Shown: one piece after another, positions 14,190-61,837 of the stretch
How the letters are laid out: every line of letters begins with the position of its first letter
Position numbering within the stretch: position 1 is the stretch's first letter
From: an uncultured Pelagibacteraceae bacterium
GTDB lineage: Bacteria > Pseudomonadota > Alphaproteobacteria > Pelagibacterales > AG-422-B15
Length of the DNA: 64,000 nucleotides
Reading direction: 5' to 3'
Assembly (NCBI GenBank): GCA_902517885.1
Contig: CABYDZ010000002.1
Span: 71,805-135,804 of the forward strand
Notes under the pieces: generated by a model
Databases searched by the model: none
What the model saw: the letters and a program-made list of their open reading frames with translations, nothing else
What the model was told of the DNA's origin: nothing
Program-made: the position numbers and the translations under genes

Positions 14190-14264
14190 TGGGGCGTGGC
14201 CAAGCGGTAAGGCACCGCTTTTTGGTAGCGGCATTCGGAGGTTCGAATCCTCCCGCCCCAGCCA
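14190..14264 (+). tRNA. tRNA-Gln (UUG)
   Basis: It folds as a cloverleaf by hand: acceptor TGGGGCG/CGCCCCA, anticodon stem CCGCT/AGCGG with loop TTTTGGT (anticodon TTG), T arm GGAGG-TTCGAAT-CCTCC. The CCA end is encoded. Confidence 0.92.
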
Positions 14265-53946: not shown

Positions 53947-55962
53947 ATGAAAAAACGTGGTAGAAAAAAAAAGCAGTCAAAGCAATCACTAGAGATTAAT
54001 ATATCTCAACCAATCGATCAAGATGGACCTGTTTTAGATTTAGAAAAGTCTATTATAAAGAAGTTAATCAAGCAAGGGAAGAAAGACGGATATCTAACAA
54101 ATGAACTGATAAAAAAATCATTTCCAGAAGATAAGTTTACTTCTGAACAAATTGAGCAGTATACAACTAAGTTGTCACAAGCAGGATTTGATATTATTGA
54201 CTCAGATGACTCAGATAATGACGACGATAAAGAAGATGATACTGCTGGCAGTAAAACAGGAACAGAAAAAACAGATGACCCGGTAAAACTCTATCTTAGA
54301 GAAATGGGTACAGTTGATCTTCTTTCACGTGAAGGTGAGATAGCCATTGCCAAAAGGATTGAAGCTGGACAGGAAGCTATGATTTCTGGATTATGTGAAA
54401 GTCCATTAACATTAAAAGCAATTCTTGATTGGAGAGACGATATTATTGAAGAAAAAATTACTCTCAGGGAGGTCATAGATCTTGAGTCTTTGTTTGAAGA
54501 ATCTCCTAACAAAAAAGAACTTAGTAAAAAAATTAAAGAAGCAAAAAAAAGAAAGGAACAAGAGGAAAAGGAAGAAATAAGAAAGCGAAAAGAAGCTGAA
54601 AAAAAATCAGCAACTTATGGAAATGATACTGAACCGATGATAGAAACCTCAGCGGACCAGTCAGTAGAAGAATATGAAGATTCTGATGATGAGTTGAATG
54701 TGTCTATTGCCATTATGGAAGAGGAGCTAAAACCTATTATATTAGAAACGTTTAAAAAATTAAATAAAAGTTTTAAAAAATTACAAAAGCTTCAACAAGA
54801 CAAAATCGCTTTTCAAGAAAAAGGAAAAGAATTTCCAGCAAGATCAGAAAAAAATTATCAACTGTCAAAAATTGCTGTCGTTGAATTAATCAAAGGCCTT
54901 CAAATTAATACAAGTAAAATTGAGGAACTGATTAATAAGCTCTACATAATCAATAAAGAAGTCGTATCACTAGAAGGAAAATTACTTCGCTTAGCCATGC
55001 AGCACAAGATCACTCGAGAAGAGTTTTTAGATAAGTATGTAGGCAATGAAAACAATCCATACTGGTTAAGAAAAATTACGAGACTGTCGGGGTGGGAAAA
55101 GTTTGTTAAGTTAGAGAAAAATAGTATCAAGAATATAATGAACGAAGTAAGAGCATCTGCTAGCAATATAGGATTAACATTAAATGAATTTAAAAGAATT
55201 GTTAGTAATGTTCAAAAAGGCGAAAGAGAATCAAGTATTGCAAAAAAAGAAATGATTGAAGCTAATCTTAGATTAGTAATCTCAATTGCTAAAAAATACA
55301 CAAACAGAGGGCTTCAGTTTCTTGATCTTATTCAGGAGGGAAATATCGGACTCATGAAAGCTGTTGATAAGTTTGAGTATAGGAGAGGATATAAATTTTC
55401 AACTTATGCTACGTGGTGGATTAGGCAAGCAATTACTCGCTCAATAGCGGATCAGGCGAGAACTATCAGAATACCTGTGCATATGATTGAAACAATTAAT
55501 AAAATTGTTAGAACACAGAGACTTCTATTAAATGAAATTGGCCGGGAACCTACTCCAGAAGAAATATCTATCAAATTAAATATGCCTCTTGAGAAAGTAA
55601 GAAAAGTATTAAAAATTGCAAAAGAACCAGTAAGCCTTGAAACTCCTGTGGGAGACGAAGAAGACAGTCACTTAGGCGATTTTATACAAGATGACAACGC
55701 TGTCATTCCAATCGATGCAGCGATAAATTCTAACTTAAGACAAACAACCACTAAGATATTGTCCTCGCTTACTCCAAGAGAAGAACGTGTACTAAGAATG
55801 AGGTTTGGTATTGGAATGAATTCAGACCATACTTTAGAAGAAGTTGGCCAACAATTCTCAGTTACTAGAGAGCGAATTAGACAGATTGAAGCTAAAGCCT
55901 TACGAAAATTAAAGCATCCTACAAGAGCTAAACTTCTCAAAAGCTTTTTAGATAAAAACTAA
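53947..55962 (+). CDS. rpoD: RNA polymerase sigma-70 factor RpoD
   Basis: It has an acidic region 1, region 2 ([27 protein letters not shown]) and region 4 ([27 protein letters not shown]). Confidence 0.98.
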
Positions 55963-56011
55963 TTTATTAAACTGTAAATACGTTTATTTATTGTATATAA
56001 CAAATTTAAAG

Positions 56012-56088
56012 GGGCCCATAGCTCAGTTGGTTAGAGCCCTCCGCTCATAACGGAGTTGTCCTAGGTTCGAGTCCTAGTGGGCCCACCA
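56012..56088 (+). tRNA. tRNA with CAU anticodon (elongator Met or lysidine-modified Ile2)
   Basis: It folds as a cloverleaf by hand: acceptor GGGCCCA/TGGGCCC, D arm GCTC-AGTTGGTTA-GAGC, anticodon stem CTCCG/CGGAG with loop CTCATAA, T arm CTAGG-TTCGAGT-CCTAG, and an encoded CCA. The C4:G69 and C5:G68 pairs resemble tRNA-Ile2, but the identity is not resolved. Confidence 0.9.
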
Positions 56089-56635
56089 AATAATACAATG
56101 ACTTAGGTTATATCTTATCTACTTTTATATTTCGAAACAAGATCAGATCGTCATCTGATCGTCATTGGTATTACAAATATATTATTGCTATTAGATCTCA
56201 TAAATGTATTATTCATGTATGAAAAAAATATTTATATCTCTTACAATGTTACTATTCATATTTGCTTGTGCTAAACCGTATGTTGTAGAAACAAGACAAT
56301 ATGGTGATGCCGATAAATCGTGTTCGCAGTTAGATAGTGAAATTTATAGAACTGAGCAAGTAATAAGGGACGCTAAGGAAGAGAGAGGTATGACTGGAAC
56401 TAATGTAGCTGCAGTATTATTTTGGCTTCCTGGATTAGCTGCAACTTACATGAATGTAAATGAAGCTGTTGAGGCTGGTGAAGAAAGACTTGATGTACTT
56501 TACAATTTAAAAGCAAAGAAGAATTGTTAGAGAACTCTGAGTTTCGTCATTTAGTGTTAACTAATCTTAAAAACCAAAGATATACAGATTTAAATTTATT
56601 ATATATCCTGGCTTAAATAACAATTTGCTACGCCA
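56089..56635. mobile_element. possible remnant of an integrated element (bounded by tRNA 3' end and its degenerate copy); no integrase present
   Basis: This 547-bp segment lies between the intact tRNA(CAU) 3' end and a 41-nt degenerate direct copy of the tRNA 3' half. It carries one small lipoprotein ORF. Confidence 0.3.
56204..56530 (+). CDS. small putative lipoprotein, unknown function
   Basis: The likely start is MKKIF at 56219. It has a lipobox-like signal end (LLFIFAC), then a charged helix and a hydrophobic Gly/Ala segment (AAVLFWLPGLAATY). Confidence 0.55.
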   Translation: MYYSCMKKIFISLTMLLFIFACAKPYVVETRQYGDADKSCSQLDSEIYRTEQVIRDAKEERGMTGTNVAAVLFWLPGLAATYMNVNEAVEAGEERLDVLYNLKAKKNC

Positions 56636-56676
56636 ATAACGGAGTTGTCCTTGGTTCTAGTCCTAGTGGCCCACCA
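56636..56676 (+). repeat. degenerate direct copy of the 3' half of tRNA(CAU) (att-like)
   Basis: ATAACGGAGTTGTCCTTGGTTCTAGTCCTAGTGGCCCACCA aligns to tRNA positions 56047-56088 with 2 substitutions and a 1-nt deletion. No 5' half lies upstream. Confidence 0.85.
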
Positions 56677-56724
56677 TGATCTGAATATTTACAAAATAAA
56701 GTTTATTGAATAATCTTATTAATA

Positions 56725-57573
56725 ATGAATTTCAATATAACTGTTTCTGATCAAGCTTGTGGCGCTGAAATTTCAGGAATAGATTTGAAGAGAGAACTCT
56801 CTGAGAGTCAGATCTCAGATATAAGAGATTTGTGGCTTGAGCACCACGTGTTGAGCTTTCCAAATCAATCTTTAGACGATGATGCTCTTGAACGTTTCAC
56901 ACTTTGCTTTGGTTCATTTGGAGATGATCCCTTCATAGCACCTATTCCAGGCAGAAAAAATATTATTGCTGTTAAAAGAGTAGCGGATGAGAAGGTTCCA
57001 ATTTTTGCAGACAATTGGCACACAGACTGGAGTTTTCAAGAAAATCCTCCAGCAGGTACTTGCCTTTATGGAAAAATTATTCCAACTAAGGGCGGCGATA
57101 CTTTATTTTCCAATCAACACATGGCATTAGAAAAAATGCCAGCTCCACTTAGAAAAAAACTTGAGGGTAAAAATGCAATTCATTCAGCTTCGGTTCCTTA
57201 CTCGCCAGGAGGAGGATATGGAGATAGAGATAGAGAAATGGGACGAAGTATGGATATACGCGCATCTGATGAAGCATTTTCAAAACAATTACATCCTATA
57301 ATAAAGAAGCATACTGAGACAAAACGGGAGGGAATTTATGGTACAATAGGTTATATCATTGGCATTGATGGCATGGATAGCCAAGATGCGATGAAACTGC
57401 TGATGGAATTGAGTGCTTGGCAGTGTCAAGAAGAGTTTATTTATAAACACCAATGGAAAAAAGATATGTTAATTATGTGGGATAATAGAAGCGTCTTGCA
57501 TAGAGCTACAGGAGGCTATGAGGGTCAAGAGAGGCTCTTACATAGAACAACAATTGCCGCTTATGAAGAATAA
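56725..57573 (+). CDS. TauD/TfdA-family Fe(II)/2-oxoglutarate dioxygenase
   Basis: It has the H-x-D motif in WHTDWSF, the distal His in SVLHRAT, and the family-typical GGDTLF segment. Confidence 0.85.
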   Translation: MNFNITVSDQACGAEISGIDLKRELSESQISDIRDLWLEHHVLSFPNQSLDDDALERFTLCFGSFGDDPFIAPIPGRKNIIAVKRVADEKVPIFADNWHTDWSFQENPPAGTCLYGKIIPTKGGDTLFSNQHMALEKMPAPLRKKLEGKNAIHSASVPYSPGGGYGDRDREMGRSMDIRASDEAFSKQLHPIIKKHTETKREGIYGTIGYIIGIDGMDSQDAMKLLMELSAWQCQEEFIYKHQWKKDMLIMWDNRSVLHRATGGYEGQERLLHRTTIAAYEE

Positions 57574-57582
57574 GCTAATAAT

Positions 57583-58650
57583 CTAATTTTTTCTTGCCTC
57601 AATCACCATATTGCTTGCATTCTTTTTAACTACTTTGCAATTCTTAAAGCCTGCTTCATTTAATATATCTATTAGTTTTGAGGGCCCAGCTTGTGCGCCT
57701 AAAGCTAAGCCAACTTCTTGTGATTTTGAAGTTGGTATGCAGCCTATTGTTGAAAATGAATAATACATTTGGCCAAAAAGATTGAAGTTATCTTGTGGCT
57801 CATCATTTGCAGTGGGCTCGATTAATATCACAGATCCATTATCTTCAAGTTGATCGTAAGCATATTTAGCAGCTCCAACAGGATCCCCCATATCGTGTAG
57901 GCAGTCAAAAAATGCAATATAGTCGTGCTTACCATGATAACTTTTGGCATCAGCTGTCGTATATTTAATTCTTTTATCCAGTCCTGCTTTTTTAGCTAAC
58001 TTCTCAGCTTCTTTAATTGAAGGCTCGTGAATGTCATAGCCACATACTTTTGCGTTAGGAAAAGTTTGAGCGATAATCATAGTTGACAAACCATAACCAC
58101 AGCCAATATCAGCAAAGCTGGCTCCTGTATTCATTCGTTCTTCAAGATTTTCAATTTTTGGTAGCCAACTCGTCACCAAATTCTTTTCATAAGAAGGTTT
58201 AAAGAAACGGGCAGTTCCTTGAAAACATATTGGACAAGAATCTTTATAATCAACACCATCTCCAGTTTTGAAAGCTTCTTTGACCTGACCCTCATTATGT
58301 ATTGCACCAGTCAACATATCATAAGCTCCTATCATTGATGCTGGACCATCATCCTCTGCAAAAACTGCAACTTGCTCAGGAGTTAATGAAAATTTTTTTA
58401 TTTCTGCATTGTATGTTGCAAAACCAGCAGCTGAAACTGCATACAACCACTCTCTTAGATATCTCTCATCAAGTGCTGTTGCTTTTGCTAGTTCATTTGA
58501 ACTGACTTCTCCTATTTCACTTAGTTTCTTAAATATACCAAGCTGATCTCCAATTCTCATCAATGGAATTATCGCTGAAGCAGAAACATCCTGCATGATT
58601 TTAAGTTGTAGCTTTTTCAGTGTTTCGGGATTTATTTCTTTATTTTCCAT
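57583..58650 (-). CDS. class I SAM-dependent methyltransferase with N-terminal winged-helix domain
   Basis: It has the SAM motif I FADIGCGYG and a roughly 90-aa N-terminal helical/wHTH-like region (GIFKKLSEIGEVSSNELAKATALDERYLREWL). Confidence 0.75.
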   Translation of the reverse strand: MENKEINPETLKKLQLKIMQDVSASAIIPLMRIGDQLGIFKKLSEIGEVSSNELAKATALDERYLREWLYAVSAAGFATYNAEIKKFSLTPEQVAVFAEDDGPASMIGAYDMLTGAIHNEGQVKEAFKTGDGVDYKDSCPICFQGTARFFKPSYEKNLVTSWLPKIENLEERMNTGASFADIGCGYGLSTMIIAQTFPNAKVCGYDIHEPSIKEAEKLAKKAGLDKRIKYTTADAKSYHGKHDYIAFFDCLHDMGDPVGAAKYAYDQLEDNGSVILIEPTANDEPQDNFNLFGQMYYSFSTIGCIPTSKSQEVGLALGAQAGPSKLIDILNEAGFKNCKVVKKNASNMVIEARKN

Positions 58651-58756
58651 ATTGTATTGCTCCTAAAATTTTTTTTACAACTTAAATAATAGATTAAGTA
58701 GGATACAAGTGTTAATCTAAATTTTAATAATAATTTTCAACAACAAATAAATAGAT

Positions 58757-59740
58757 ATGTCCTATTCATTAATTATCTTAATCATCGGATTGCTTATTAT
58801 CCTTGGGTTAATTTATTCTTTCTTTAAATCTTTTAAGAATGATGTTCCAAGAAATATAATAGAAGCGAGATATGCAAAATCGGAGTCTAAATTTATTACA
58901 CTAGATAATGGTTCAAGAATACATACTCTAGTTAAAGGAAATCCAGATGCACCCGTATTAGTTTTACTTCATGGCTACTTAGCTTCATTGTTCACATTTG
59001 ATAAAGTTGTACCCCAGCTATCTGAAAAATATAAAGTAGTCTGCTTAGACTTTCCAGCATTTGGTTTGACTGGAGCAGTCCCAAATAAGGATTATTCAAT
59101 TGAGACTTTTATTGAGACAGTAAATCAAGTAGTTAAAAAATTAAGTATAGATAAATTTTACCTTTTAGGTCATTCGATGGGTGGCAGAGTTGCGTGGCGT
59201 TATACCATTAAATATCCAGATCAGGTAAAGAAATTAATACTTGTTGGATCAGGAGTTCTTCTTAATGAAGGCGATCTTGAGAGATTTGAAAGGCAAAATA
59301 TTCCTAAAGCATTCAGATATATCGGCGCTAATTTTCCTTATAAAGAAAAATTTGTTTACTTCACACCAAAATTTTTTGCAAAACAAGGGGCGAAGGTTTC
59401 GGTTTATGACCAAAACTTAGTTACAGATGAAATGGTTGATCAGTATTATGATTTACCTCTGCTTGAAGGTTCAAGGCAGGCATTAGCTGACATGGCATTA
59501 ATGAATGAGGTAAAAGATTTGTTGTTAGATGATGAAAATTTATTAAAACAAATAAAAGTACCATCTTTGATGATACACGGTGACAAAGATAATATCATTG
59601 GTTTGTGGGCAACAAAACCATTTGAGAATAATATAAATAATTTAAAAATAAAAATTTTTACGAATATGGGTCATATGCCAATGATCGAGGACCCCATTGG
59701 CGTCGTAAAAGAAATCAATGACTTTATAAAAATAGATTAA
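58757..59740 (+). CDS. membrane-anchored alpha/beta hydrolase
   Basis: It has an N-terminal TM helix, an oxyanion segment (LLHGY), a nucleophile elbow (GHSMGG) and a C-terminal GHMP His. Confidence 0.8.
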   Translation: MSYSLIILIIGLLIILGLIYSFFKSFKNDVPRNIIEARYAKSESKFITLDNGSRIHTLVKGNPDAPVLVLLHGYLASLFTFDKVVPQLSEKYKVVCLDFPAFGLTGAVPNKDYSIETFIETVNQVVKKLSIDKFYLLGHSMGGRVAWRYTIKYPDQVKKLILVGSGVLLNEGDLERFERQNIPKAFRYIGANFPYKEKFVYFTPKFFAKQGAKVSVYDQNLVTDEMVDQYYDLPLLEGSRQALADMALMNEVKDLLLDDENLLKQIKVPSLMIHGDKDNIIGLWATKPFENNINNLKIKIFTNMGHMPMIEDPIGVVKEINDFIKID

Positions 59741-59750
59741 GTATAATCTT

Positions 59751-60440
59751 TCAAGTTTTGAGGGTTTGACCTTTTAAGTTTGCTGGAATTGCAACATCCA
59801 TCATCTTTGGATTAGCTAAATTAAGATTATCCATAATTTCGGCATATTCAGCTGCTGAATTCACTTGAAGTCTTGGATTATTTTTCTTTTCACTACCGAT
59901 TGTTGAAAATTGATTGCCCTTATAATCATGCGCTGGGTAAACTAAGGTCTCTTCAGGTAATTTTAAAACTTTATTAAAGAGAGAGTCATAAGCTTCGCTA
60001 GCGCTTCCATTTTGGAAATCAGTTCTACCGGTGCCATTTATCAAAAGTGTATCACCAGTAAAAATACGATCGTTCATTAAAAAGCAATATGAGTCATCCG
60101 TATGTCCTGGTGTATAAAGAGCTTCTAAATTAATTCCGTCAATAATTATTTTATCATTGTCCTTTACTTTTAAGTTAACCACTTCAGATTTTGAATGTTC
60201 TCCCATAACTGTTTGGCAATTTGTTCTTTCTTTTAATTCTGCCATTGCAGAAATATGATCAGCATGAATATGGGTATCGATGACTTTAACGAGCCTTAAG
60301 TCTAAATCATTTAATAAATCAGTATAAATGTAAGTATGTTCAATTACTGGATCAATTATTAAAGCCTCGCGGCCCTTACCACTGGCAACGATATACGTGT
60401 AGGTAGATGATTTCTCGTCAAAAAGTTGTTTAAAAATCAT
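59751..60440 (-). CDS. MBL-fold persulfide dioxygenase (ETHE1-like)
   Basis: The N-terminus FKQLFDEKSSTYTYIV, the metal motif THIHADH, TPGHTDDS and GRTDFQNGS are all typical of ETHE1-type sulfur dioxygenases. Confidence 0.8.
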   Translation of the reverse strand: MIFKQLFDEKSSTYTYIVASGKGREALIIDPVIEHTYIYTDLLNDLDLRLVKVIDTHIHADHISAMAELKERTNCQTVMGEHSKSEVVNLKVKDNDKIIIDGINLEALYTPGHTDDSYCFLMNDRIFTGDTLLINGTGRTDFQNGSASEAYDSLFNKVLKLPEETLVYPAHDYKGNQFSTIGSEKKNNPRLQVNSAAEYAEIMDNLNLANPKMMDVAIPANLKGQTLKT

Positions 60441-60519
60441 TATGAATCAACATCTTATAAAAATTTGAACAGAAAGCAATCTTGTTTATAATAATTCTAA
60501 ATTAATAAAGGGGAATTAA

Positions 60520-61182
60520 ATGACTTTAAAAATTAATAGCATGTGTCCAGATTTTGAAGCTAAGACTTCAGAAGGAGACATTTCTTTTCATGAATGGCTA
60601 GGAGATAGTTGGGGAGTATTATTTTCTCACCCTAAAGATTTCACACCCGTTTGTACTACGGAACTAGGTGTATTAGCTGGAATGAAAGATGAATTTGATA
60701 AAAGAAATGTAAAAGTGATTGGACTGAGCGTCGATGGTGTTGAAGATCATATAAAATGGTTAGACGATATTAAGGATGTTTCAGGCATAAGGCCAACTTA
60801 TCCAATAATTGCTGATGAAGATTTAAAAGTTGCTAAGCTTTTCAATATGCTTGAAGGCGATGCTGGTACATCATCAATGGGAAGAACTGCCGTAGACAAT
60901 GAAACTGTTCGGACAATATTTGTTGTAAGGCCAGACAAAAGAATTGGCCTATATTTAACATATCCTATGGCTACAGGAAGAAATTTCCATGAAATTTTGC
61001 GTGCAATCGACTCTATGCAGCTTACCGCTAATCATAAAGTTGCAACTCCAGCTAACTGGAAAAAAGGTGAAGACGTTGTAATACTTCCAGCAGTTAAAAA
61101 TGAGGATGCAGAAAAAATATATCCTGATGGATGGGAAACTGTAAAACCTTATTTACGCAAGGTACCTGATCCCTCGAAATAA
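60520..61182 (+). CDS. 1-Cys peroxiredoxin (Prx6 type)
   Basis: It has the peroxidatic motif HPKDFTPVCTTE, is 220 aa long, and has no resolving Cys context. Confidence 0.9.
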   Translation: MTLKINSMCPDFEAKTSEGDISFHEWLGDSWGVLFSHPKDFTPVCTTELGVLAGMKDEFDKRNVKVIGLSVDGVEDHIKWLDDIKDVSGIRPTYPIIADEDLKVAKLFNMLEGDAGTSSMGRTAVDNETVRTIFVVRPDKRIGLYLTYPMATGRNFHEILRAIDSMQLTANHKVATPANWKKGEDVVILPAVKNEDAEKIYPDGWETVKPYLRKVPDPSK

Positions 61183-61183
61183 A

Positions 61184-61837
61184 TTGGATAGTAAACTCTT
61201 ATACAAACAATCTCAGCATTGGGAAAATAATTTCCAAAATAAGCCTGAGATGTTTGGAATAGATCCCAGTATAGCTGCTATCAAATCTGCAAAAATATTC
61301 AAATCCCATAGAATTAATAAAGTTTTAGAAATAGGAGCTGGCCAGGGTCGTGATACTCTATATTTCGCTAAACAAGGTTTCAAAATTGACTCTTTAGATT
61401 ACAGTAAAAAAGCAATTAATGACATAAGTGAAAAAAGTAGAACGAATCGTCTAGAAAATCTTATTACATCTAAGGTTCATGATATGAGATTGCCCTTACC
61501 TTATAAGAATGAATGCTTTGAAGCATGTTATTCACACATGCTTTACTGTATGGCATTTTCGATGAATGAGATTATATCATTAAATAATGAAGTTTTAAGA
61601 ATATTAAAAAAGGGAGGTATAAATATTTTTACTGTTCGTAATACATTGGACGGTGATTACAAAAATGGCATTCATAGAGATGAAGATTTATATGAAAATG
61701 ATGGATTTATTGTACATTTTTTTTCGATAGAAAAAATAAAGAAACTTCTAAATGGGTTCGAATTAATAAAAATTGATGATTTTAATGAGGGAAAGTTTCC
61801 GAGAAAATTATATAAAGTTGTACTTAAGAAATTATGA
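61184..61837 (+). CDS. class I SAM-dependent methyltransferase
   Basis: It has the SAM motif I VLEIGAGQGRD and the post-I acidic residue (IDSLDYS). It has a TTG start 1 nt after the Prx stop. Confidence 0.75.
   Translation: MDSKLLYKQSQHWENNFQNKPEMFGIDPSIAAIKSAKIFKSHRINKVLEIGAGQGRDTLYFAKQGFKIDSLDYSKKAINDISEKSRTNRLENLITSKVHDMRLPLPYKNECFEACYSHMLYCMAFSMNEIISLNNEVLRILKKGGINIFTVRNTLDGDYKNGIHRDEDLYENDGFIVHFFSIEKIKKLLNGFELIKIDDFNEGKFPRKLYKVVLKKL

Follow-up and report, generated by a model that had tools for sequence, protein, structure and literature searches.

A one-gene insert behind the tRNA(CAU) gene of a Pelagibacteraceae genome as the probable remnant of a small integrating element

Within a 64,000-nucleotide stretch of DNA from an uncultured Pelagibacteraceae bacterium (hereafter the window), the tRNA(CAU) gene that follows rpoD is itself followed by a 589-bp insert, which holds a single lipoprotein gene and is closed by a degenerate copy of the 3' part of the tRNA. 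We conclude that the insert is probably the remnant of a small integrating element that entered site-specifically at this tRNA. The evidence comes from the repeat itself, from an empty site in the closest genome found, from the variability of the locus in marine metagenomes, from a family of integrase-bearing circles whose attachment site contains the same part of the tRNA, and from the homology of the left end of the insert to an arm of that attachment site. An initial annotation, made from the letters of the window, had proposed an integration scar here. Sequences compared with the window are denoted by L numbers, and features are given in window coordinates with their strand.

The tRNA gene and its displaced 3' copy

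ARAGORN calls a single tRNA gene, tRNA(CAT), in the window at 56012–56088 (+), and no second one; the gene scores 69.3 bits with the Rfam tRNA model. The program labels it as Met, and the alternative, Ile2, is left standing. The gene starts 49 nt past the stop codon of rpoD (sigma-70; 53947–55962, +; a 671-residue open reading frame (ORF)), which forms the conserved left flank. The top direct repeat of the window pairs 56039–56083 with 56628–56672 (45 nt, 87% identity) and places the copy 589 nt downstream of the 3' part of the tRNA in the same orientation. When the tRNA was compared by BLAST with the window, the fragment was recovered with E = 9e-10 and otherwise nothing notable, and the 16-mer ATAACGGAGTTGTCCT is found at these two sites only. 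The intact tRNA and the displaced direct copy of the initial annotation are confirmed by all of these methods, and its count of two substitutions and a 1-nt deletion is exact when made from ATAACGG onwards (56047 in the tRNA, 56636 in the copy). Its statement that there is no trace of a 5' half is right in that no second tRNA is called and wrong in that the ~40 nt upstream of the fragment have a faint D-arm similarity, which is clearer in the better-preserved copies of L101 and L102.

The similarity extends 8 nt further in the 5' direction (CTACGCCA against CTCCGCTC). For what follows the important unit is a 45-nt core running from the anticodon loop to the CCA end (CTCATAACGG...CCCACCA; 56044–56088, +), which is repeated at cassette boundaries and present in the attachment site (attP) of integrase-bearing circles. 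Over this core the window copy (56633–56676, +) has four substitutions and one deletion and is 89% identical; two of the substitutions are in the anticodon loop and two in the T arm, and the deletion is in the acceptor strand. The anticodon loop lies inside the copy in mutated form, CTCATAA having become CCAATAA (stem and loop CTCCG-CTCATAA against CTACG-CCAATAA). We propose that the intact tRNA represents attL (B arm and core) and the degenerate copy a decayed attR.

Two other features were seen at these positions. An inverted repeat of 17 nt, 94% complementary, has one half just before the tRNA (55994–56010) and the other just before the fragment (56589–56605); it is AT-rich and possibly of chance origin. 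A sub-threshold Rfam match to the Plastid-ycf2 5' untranslated region at 56012–56086 (−), with 42 bits against a gathering cut-off of 65.7 bits, covers the same bases as the tRNA and is therefore probably a reflection of the tRNA sequence and not a feature of its own.

An empty site in the closest genome

Searching a collection of species-representative genomes with rpoD gave mostly Alphaproteobacteria from outside SAR11 and one useful relative, Pelagibacteraceae bacterium AG-337-G06 (L016), the closest genome found, in which rpoD is 95% identical. Its site is empty: an identical tRNA is followed 48 nt later by a TauD-like gene. Window 55501–56091 aligns to L016 at 86% identity, and window 56628–60500 corresponds to L016 12092–15964 at 91.4% identity, contiguous there with the upstream segment. 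Since the two segments are contiguous in L016, 56092–56627 is specific to the window. The spacer behind the fragment (56677–56724, +) is the one that directly follows the tRNA in L016, and would thus be the original spacer between the tRNA and the TauD-like gene (the B' flank), displaced by the insert. This is the textbook signature of an insertion that duplicates the 3' part of its target. The insert has a guanine-plus-cytosine (GC) content of 30.7% against 33.2% for the window, so that there is no anomaly of base composition.

Beyond the spacer lies the rest of the flexible island (56725–61837), in which Pfam identifies a TauD-like protein, a methyltransferase, an alpha/beta hydrolase, a metallo-beta-lactamase (MBL)-fold protein, a 1-Cys peroxiredoxin and a methyltransferase. 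The gene order in L016 is the same and continues with an old yellow enzyme (OYE) gene and a tetratricopeptide-repeat (TPR) gene.

The site in marine metagenomes

An exact search of marine metagenome contigs with the 42-nt 3' part of the tRNA gave 70 loci. The full tRNA is present in 51 of them, identical in sequence to that of the window and of L102, and rpoD lies upstream in most loci (85–99% identity) and wherever enough sequence is present. Among the loci with at least 300 bp of downstream sequence (n = 42), nine run straight from the tRNA to the TauD-like gene, which begins 37–142 nt after it, one runs straight to the MBL gene, and 32 have other DNA in between. The DNA behind this tRNA is hypervariable across the population.

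Two to three exact copies of the tRNA 3' part occur in 13 of the 70 contigs, the first being always the complete tRNA and the later ones partial. The cassettes between copies measure 525–1745 bp and mostly contain one gene each. In every partial copy the identity starts at the (G)CTC of the anticodon loop and forms a block of 45–46 nt that ends with CCA. The cargo includes secreted proteins, lipoproteins, methyltransferases, a Sel1-repeat protein, a radical-SAM/SPASM enzyme, a nitrilase, an MrcB_N-HNH nuclease and a photolyase-like protein, and the core block follows unrelated genes on either strand.

The genes downstream of the window scar take part in this variation. In L143 the TauD-like gene (window 56725–57573; L143 938–1954) stands between a full tRNA and a perfect partial core and is followed by MBL, and in L163 and L169 the tRNA is followed directly by MBL; in some genomes the TauD-like gene forms a cassette of its own. 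In L113, L114, L147 and L168 the sequence leads to the OYE gene with no MBL-peroxiredoxin-methyltransferase block in between. The initial annotation had found everything downstream (56.7–63.7 kb) to look more accessory than the rest of the window and had taken the tRNA as a candidate hotspot of plasticity. The former claim has to be divided, as 56.7–61.8 kb is syntenic in the closest genome and yet flexible across the population; the latter holds for roughly 56.1–61.8 kb, by the variation among metagenome loci. The empty sites that it suggested looking for, with the tRNA followed by the TauD-like gene, are those of L016 and the nine metagenome contigs.

An integrase family with the cognate attachment site

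An integrase was found behind a partial core in L157, where a 336-residue ORF begins 81 nt after a 45-nt block identical to tRNA positions 33–77. It is a tyrosine recombinase (Phage_integrase, PF00589, E = 2.5e-22) and belongs to a family of ~28 clusters with 60–100% identity, all from marine metagenomes and on contigs of at most 7 kb. One member, 80% identical to the integrase of L157, is encoded by L179 (6998 bp), whose terminal overlap of 99 nt indicates that it assembled as a circle. The attP of L179 comprises 47 nt identical to tRNA positions 31–77 and lies 93 nt upstream of the integrase gene int; the contig also encodes a 628-residue AAA_25 protein with primase/helicase matches in PHROGs. 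The combination of an integrase and a primase/helicase on an element of ~5–15 kb is present in L179, L180, L182 and L186–L189; the window insert has neither. Contigs L186–L189 (~6.4–6.6 kb) are circular permutations of one element, with an integrase that is ~60% identical, a Prim-Pol/AAA_25 protein and a Terminase_2 protein. They lack the tRNA(CAU) 3' core and have just an 18-nt match to tRNA positions 3–20 located ~155 nt upstream of int; presumably, therefore, they use another attachment site.

The integrated state is seen in L192, in which a full tRNA(CAU) with a variant T stem is followed by the P' arm and then by a 337-residue integrase. Together with L157, where the integrase follows the core, it provides the filled sites for which the initial annotation had proposed a search. 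Truncated integrase remnants of 24–55 residues are found beside cargo in L130 (4072–4215), L147 (1353–1496), L142 (4–168) and L158 (106–177; all in tRNA-forward orientation) and record intermediate stages between elements with an integrase and cassettes that lack one. The integrase alignment varies most over its N-terminal ~25 residues; in related enzymes the arm-binding domains sit at the N-terminus.

Two other candidates were rejected. A family of reverse-strand ORFs of ~400 residues beside the tRNA, considered as an integrase, is a secreted coiled-coil protein with no Pfam domain. L197, a 28-residue match from the search of IMG/VR with the integrase, shares no DNA with the elements.

The arms of the insert

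The left end of the insert (56089–56166, +) is homologous to the P' arm of L179: it is 88.5% identical over 78 nt to L179 4733–4810, the segment between the attP core and the start of int (4825), and the similarity stops immediately upstream of the ribosome-binding site of the integrase. Core copies are followed by this left end also in L102, L113, L128, L141, L149, L156 and L174; in L128 and L141 the ribosome-binding site of the integrase is retained and the gene is replaced by cargo on the opposite strand. Two direct copies of GATCGTCAT lie within the left end (56146–56154 and 56157–56165, +), and the same motif occurs in L179 as two copies in the P' arm and three in the P arm.

The right end (56531–56632, +) is P-arm-like and carries one TCGTCAT (56544–56550), the motif common to both arms of the window insert, followed by a degraded form of the common cassette right end (56562–56632). 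It aligns with the right ends of L101, L102, L113, L129, L142, L149, L174 and L177, and in L101 and L102 this arm has two copies of TCGTCATT against one in the window. The commonest cassette right end (window 56562–56635), found in L101, L102, L109, L113, L142, L149, L156, L174 and L178, aligns with the 5' half of the tRNA and ~40 nt of the spacer upstream of it.

Other cassettes carry TGCAGTCAT, GTCGTAA, GTGCGGGAT or TGATCACAC instead of TCGTCAT, and within a given cassette the motifs of the left and right arms are the same. The longest word common to the two arms of one cassette is longer than in shuffled pairings: none of 10,000 permutations reached the observed mean. Three of the arm groups are matched in integrase-bearing elements: TCGTCAT in L179, TGCAGTCAT in L193–194 and GTCGTAA in L192. 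Judged from these patterns, the short repeats are putative arm-type integrase-binding sites. An 8-bp hairpin with a T-rich tail at 56141–56160 (−), flagged as terminator-like, overlaps the GATCGTCAT repeats, so that an inverted-repeat reading of the motif is possible.

The lipoprotein cargo gene

The cargo of the insert is a gene for a 103-residue lipoprotein (56219–56530, +) with the lipobox cysteine at Cys17 and invariant cysteines at Cys35 and Cys103. The initial annotation described an orphan ORF at 56204–56530. This has to be corrected on two counts: there are nine clusters of homologues, 44–100% identical and with an invariant FxLPGLAAT motif, and the conserved start is at 56219, not 56204. 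Against the orthologues of L101, L102 and L104 the ratio of nonsynonymous to synonymous substitution rates (dN/dS) is ~0.07 at a dS of ~1, which indicates that the gene is functional and under purifying selection. The picture of a heavily decayed element consequently fits the attR and does not fit the gene. No match was found in Pfam, NCBIfam or PADLOC, and tblastn against phages gave nothing; there is one remote match in PHROGs (13472, E = 3.3e-8), to a family of unknown function. The AlphaFold (AF2) model is all-helical, with a predicted local distance difference test score (pLDDT) of 81, and has no Foldseek match in PDB or BFVD.

Homologues occur at this same site (L101 and L102), behind other decayed cores (L103 and L104) and within an array (L148). 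Further homologues, 62–64% identical, are found in a second variable region (L096 9118–16330 and L098 2939–5979), which in L096–098 lies between tRNA-Lys/msrA and tRNA-Leu(TAG)-tig. For pelagiphages, tRNA-Leu(TAG) has been published as an attachment site; the L096/L098 context contains no detected partial copy of tRNA-Leu or tRNA-Lys. A separate look for a tRNA-Gln fragment near 14190 found none.

Discussion

We propose that the 589-bp unit (56089–56676) arose by site-specific integration, the target being the anticodon loop of the tRNA(CAU) gene after rpoD. The incoming attP would have borne 45–47 nt of tRNA sequence, reaching from the anticodon loop to CCA, with which the tRNA, now attL, would have been rebuilt, and the original 3' end would have been pushed downstream to become attR. 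The crossover would be placed where the identity begins. The parent would belong to the family of ~7 kb that is seen in circular assemblies and encodes a tyrosine integrase and a primase/helicase, the more distant relatives of which add a small terminase; the family resembles marine phage satellites. The window would then keep the two att-proximal arms, with everything from the integrase onwards replaced by the lipoprotein gene. We infer that an integrase of the L179 type catalysed the event and that integrase-less cassettes moved in trans. The extent of the identity block, from the anticodon loop or stem to the 3' end of the tRNA, is like that of the anticodon-loop class of tRNA integration sites, reportedly set out by Williams in 2002, a work cited in PMC8477408, and implies that the gene is restored by the element's copy. 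The suggestion of an att-like scar in the initial annotation is thus supported by the empty site, the hypervariable population, the cognate attP and integrase and the homology of the arms, and among relatives the locus varies enormously.

Several observations weigh against this reading. Neither the insert, as had been noted before, nor the whole window contains an integrase or an integrase remnant. The integrase-bearing contigs are metagenomic, their link to the host consisting of the att identity and L192 alone, and the GC content of L179, L180, L182, L186, L192 and L193 is 35–38% against 33% for the window. In L179, Pfam, PHROGs and NCBIfam revealed neither a terminase nor a capsid gene, so that 'satellite' denotes a resemblance of architecture. 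The metagenome sample, having been selected by an exact 42-mer, is biased towards lineages with this tRNA sequence, and many inserts at the site have no detectable second core. Finally, the right end in this cassette family is similar to the 5' half of the tRNA and its upstream spacer and not to the P arm of the circles, which a simple internal deletion fails to explain; aberrant excision carrying attL and an old duplication are both possible origins.

The state of the copy bears on whether the cassette can still move. Among the cassettes with the lipoprotein gene the core is perfect in L101, decayed at its 3' end in L102 and, as described, 89% identical in the window. At a dS of ~1 between cassette copies a neutral 45-nt fragment would be expected to be unrecognisable, and arms and core have kept far more of their sequence than neutral DNA would at this distance; either the copies came from a mobile pool in independent acquisitions or the core has been maintained. 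The window copy has lost core maintenance. It is conceivable that the cassette is nevertheless a live non-autonomous unit, excised and re-integrated in trans by an incoming integrase of the L179 type: both arms are kept with matching TCGTCAT repeats, the L101 version has its perfect core, and the lipoprotein module is found behind other cores and in other tRNA-linked regions. We think this unlikely, as the attR of the window is mutated at the presumed crossover as well as in the T arm and acceptor strand, one of the two right-arm repeats is gone, and no integrase-less cassette was seen with a circular junction. With attR and a right-arm repeat mutated, the cassette has most likely been immobilised and its gene domesticated.

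The initial annotation also considered a scar left after most of an island or prophage was deleted. As a rival reading, the insert would stem from a temperate pelagiphage that was lost almost entirely. Pelagiphages are known to integrate into the tRNA-Cys, -Leu, -Arg and -Asn genes of SAR11, and the prophage PNP1 is reported at a tRNA-Met (10.1101/410191; PMC8477408); the lipoprotein, too, has its remote PHROG match. No record in INPHARED or IMG/VR contains the core beyond chance or generic tRNA matches: the 16-mer ATAACGGAGTTGTCCT, proposed earlier as a probe for attP, has 15 matches in IMG/VR, all by chance, with no similarity beyond the 16-mer and no tRNA; the 25-nt T-arm and acceptor end has four, three being full tRNA genes of other organisms and one a fragment of a different tRNA; the core with the variant T stem has none; and BLAST of the locus and of a 57-nt 3' part against INPHARED gave just generic tRNA similarity (~80%). 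The integrase family has no more than 34% identity to the integrases of cultured phages and no close relative in IMG/VR, searched with a single protein and with a profile. No capsid, portal or large-terminase domain turned up among those proteins of the 70 loci that were scanned or inspected, the scan covering part of the ORFs, and the integrase is found on contigs of ~7 kb, with a primase/helicase, that assemble as circles. A temperate pelagiphage is therefore a very improbable source.

We give still less credence to a tandem duplication of the tRNA region followed by pseudogenisation, with the lipoprotein gene inserted or retained in between and no site-specific recombination. The common right end, that of the window included, does align weakly with the D arm of the tRNA and even with the spacer upstream of it. 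Such a duplication does not account for an identity block that ends at the same nucleotide of the anticodon loop in dozens of independent cassettes and equals the attP core of integrase-bearing circles, nor for the homology of the left end to the integrase-proximal arm of L179, and it leaves unexplained the arrays with unrelated cargo and co-varying arm repeats; no locus among the 51 with a full tRNA has two full copies without element-derived arms. Least credible of all is a functional RNA or regulatory element, such as a tRNA-like 3' processing or terminator signal for the lipoprotein mRNA, for although the fragment lies ~100 nt past the lipoprotein stop codon and the partial copies of other genomes show perfect conservation, the fragment of the window matches nothing in Rfam, has a mismatched T stem and a weak predicted fold (−7 to −11 kcal/mol against −31 for the tRNA) and is overlapped by no terminator-like site, and the same block follows unrelated genes in either orientation. 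An integron gene cassette was rejected, as the repeat is a 3' segment of a tRNA and not an attC and the integrase scores 17–24 bits with integron-integrase models, whose cut-offs are 265–435 bits; the likeness does not go beyond function: in both, single-gene cassettes stand in arrays.

Comparable arrangements have been described. Genomic islands of SAR11 with gene cassettes bounded by partial tRNA repeats were reported by Molina-Pardines et al. (2025, Microbiome, PMC11796062), who found no canonical mobile elements in them. In the parts of that paper considered here, no recombinase or parent element is named apart from one integrase at GI-35, and the rpoD-tRNA(CAU) site is not stated to be among its four islands; for the present site the matching integrase, attP and arm homology are identified. 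Tycheposons are tyrosine-recombinase elements at tRNA genes of Prochlorococcus, some of them resembling phage-inducible chromosomal islands (PICIs) and some with cargo, in which partial tRNA copies separate tandem elements and older events have left fragmented integrases and stray partial tRNAs (Hackl et al., bioRxiv 10.1101/2020.12.28.424599). They inhabit another host, and the SAR11 cassettes differ in being much smaller (0.5–1.7 kb, mostly one gene) and in keeping both att arms with matched repeats. In the tRNA-Lys island of 'Ca. Methylopumilus', likewise a streamlined planktonic bacterium, recurring tRNA-end repeats punctuate accessory genes (PMC10872708); there the repeat takes in 20 bp at the 3' end of the tRNA, compared with 45 bp from the anticodon loop here, and the sections of that study drawn on here mention no cognate element.

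On the side of the parent, the likeness is to the virion-encapsidated integrative mobile elements (VEIMEs), small elements with a tyrosine integrase, a primase/helicase and a small terminase that are integrated in Pelagibacter genomes (Eppley et al. 2022, PNAS, PMC9618062). L186–189 carry precisely these genes, which are also those of the PICI-like tycheposons, and L179 carries the integrase and helicase with the terminase undetected; the window has just the arms and no satellite. With partial tRNA repeats of SAR11, satellites of Pelagibacter and remnants of tycheposons all published, the feature of the window belongs to a known kind, of which it is an ordinary and partly decayed example. What goes beyond the compared papers, so far as their parts used here extend, is the cognate integrase, attP and arms for one site and the integrase-less cassettes with matched arm repeats.

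No bacterial group in the ocean is more abundant than SAR11, whose genomes are streamlined and carry almost no recognisable mobile elements and whose pangenome is nevertheless open. The present locus shows one concrete route by which genes enter, an attachment site in the anticodon loop of tRNA(CAU) beside rpoD, which is used by a family of small integrase-bearing elements that leave behind mostly one-gene cassettes bounded by 45-nt tRNA-derived repeats. The comparative data name the attP, the arms, the integrases and the empty and filled sites, so that the mechanism is testable. A more tentative suggestion, which we regard as possible rather than probable, is that the cassettes are the non-autonomous half of a two-component system, each keeping a core and two arms whose short repeats match one of several specificity groups of integrases; transient, satellite-like elements of ~7 kb with an integrase could then excise, carry and re-insert them. 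If this is true, SAR11 would have an integron-like exchange of cassettes that needs no resident integrase.

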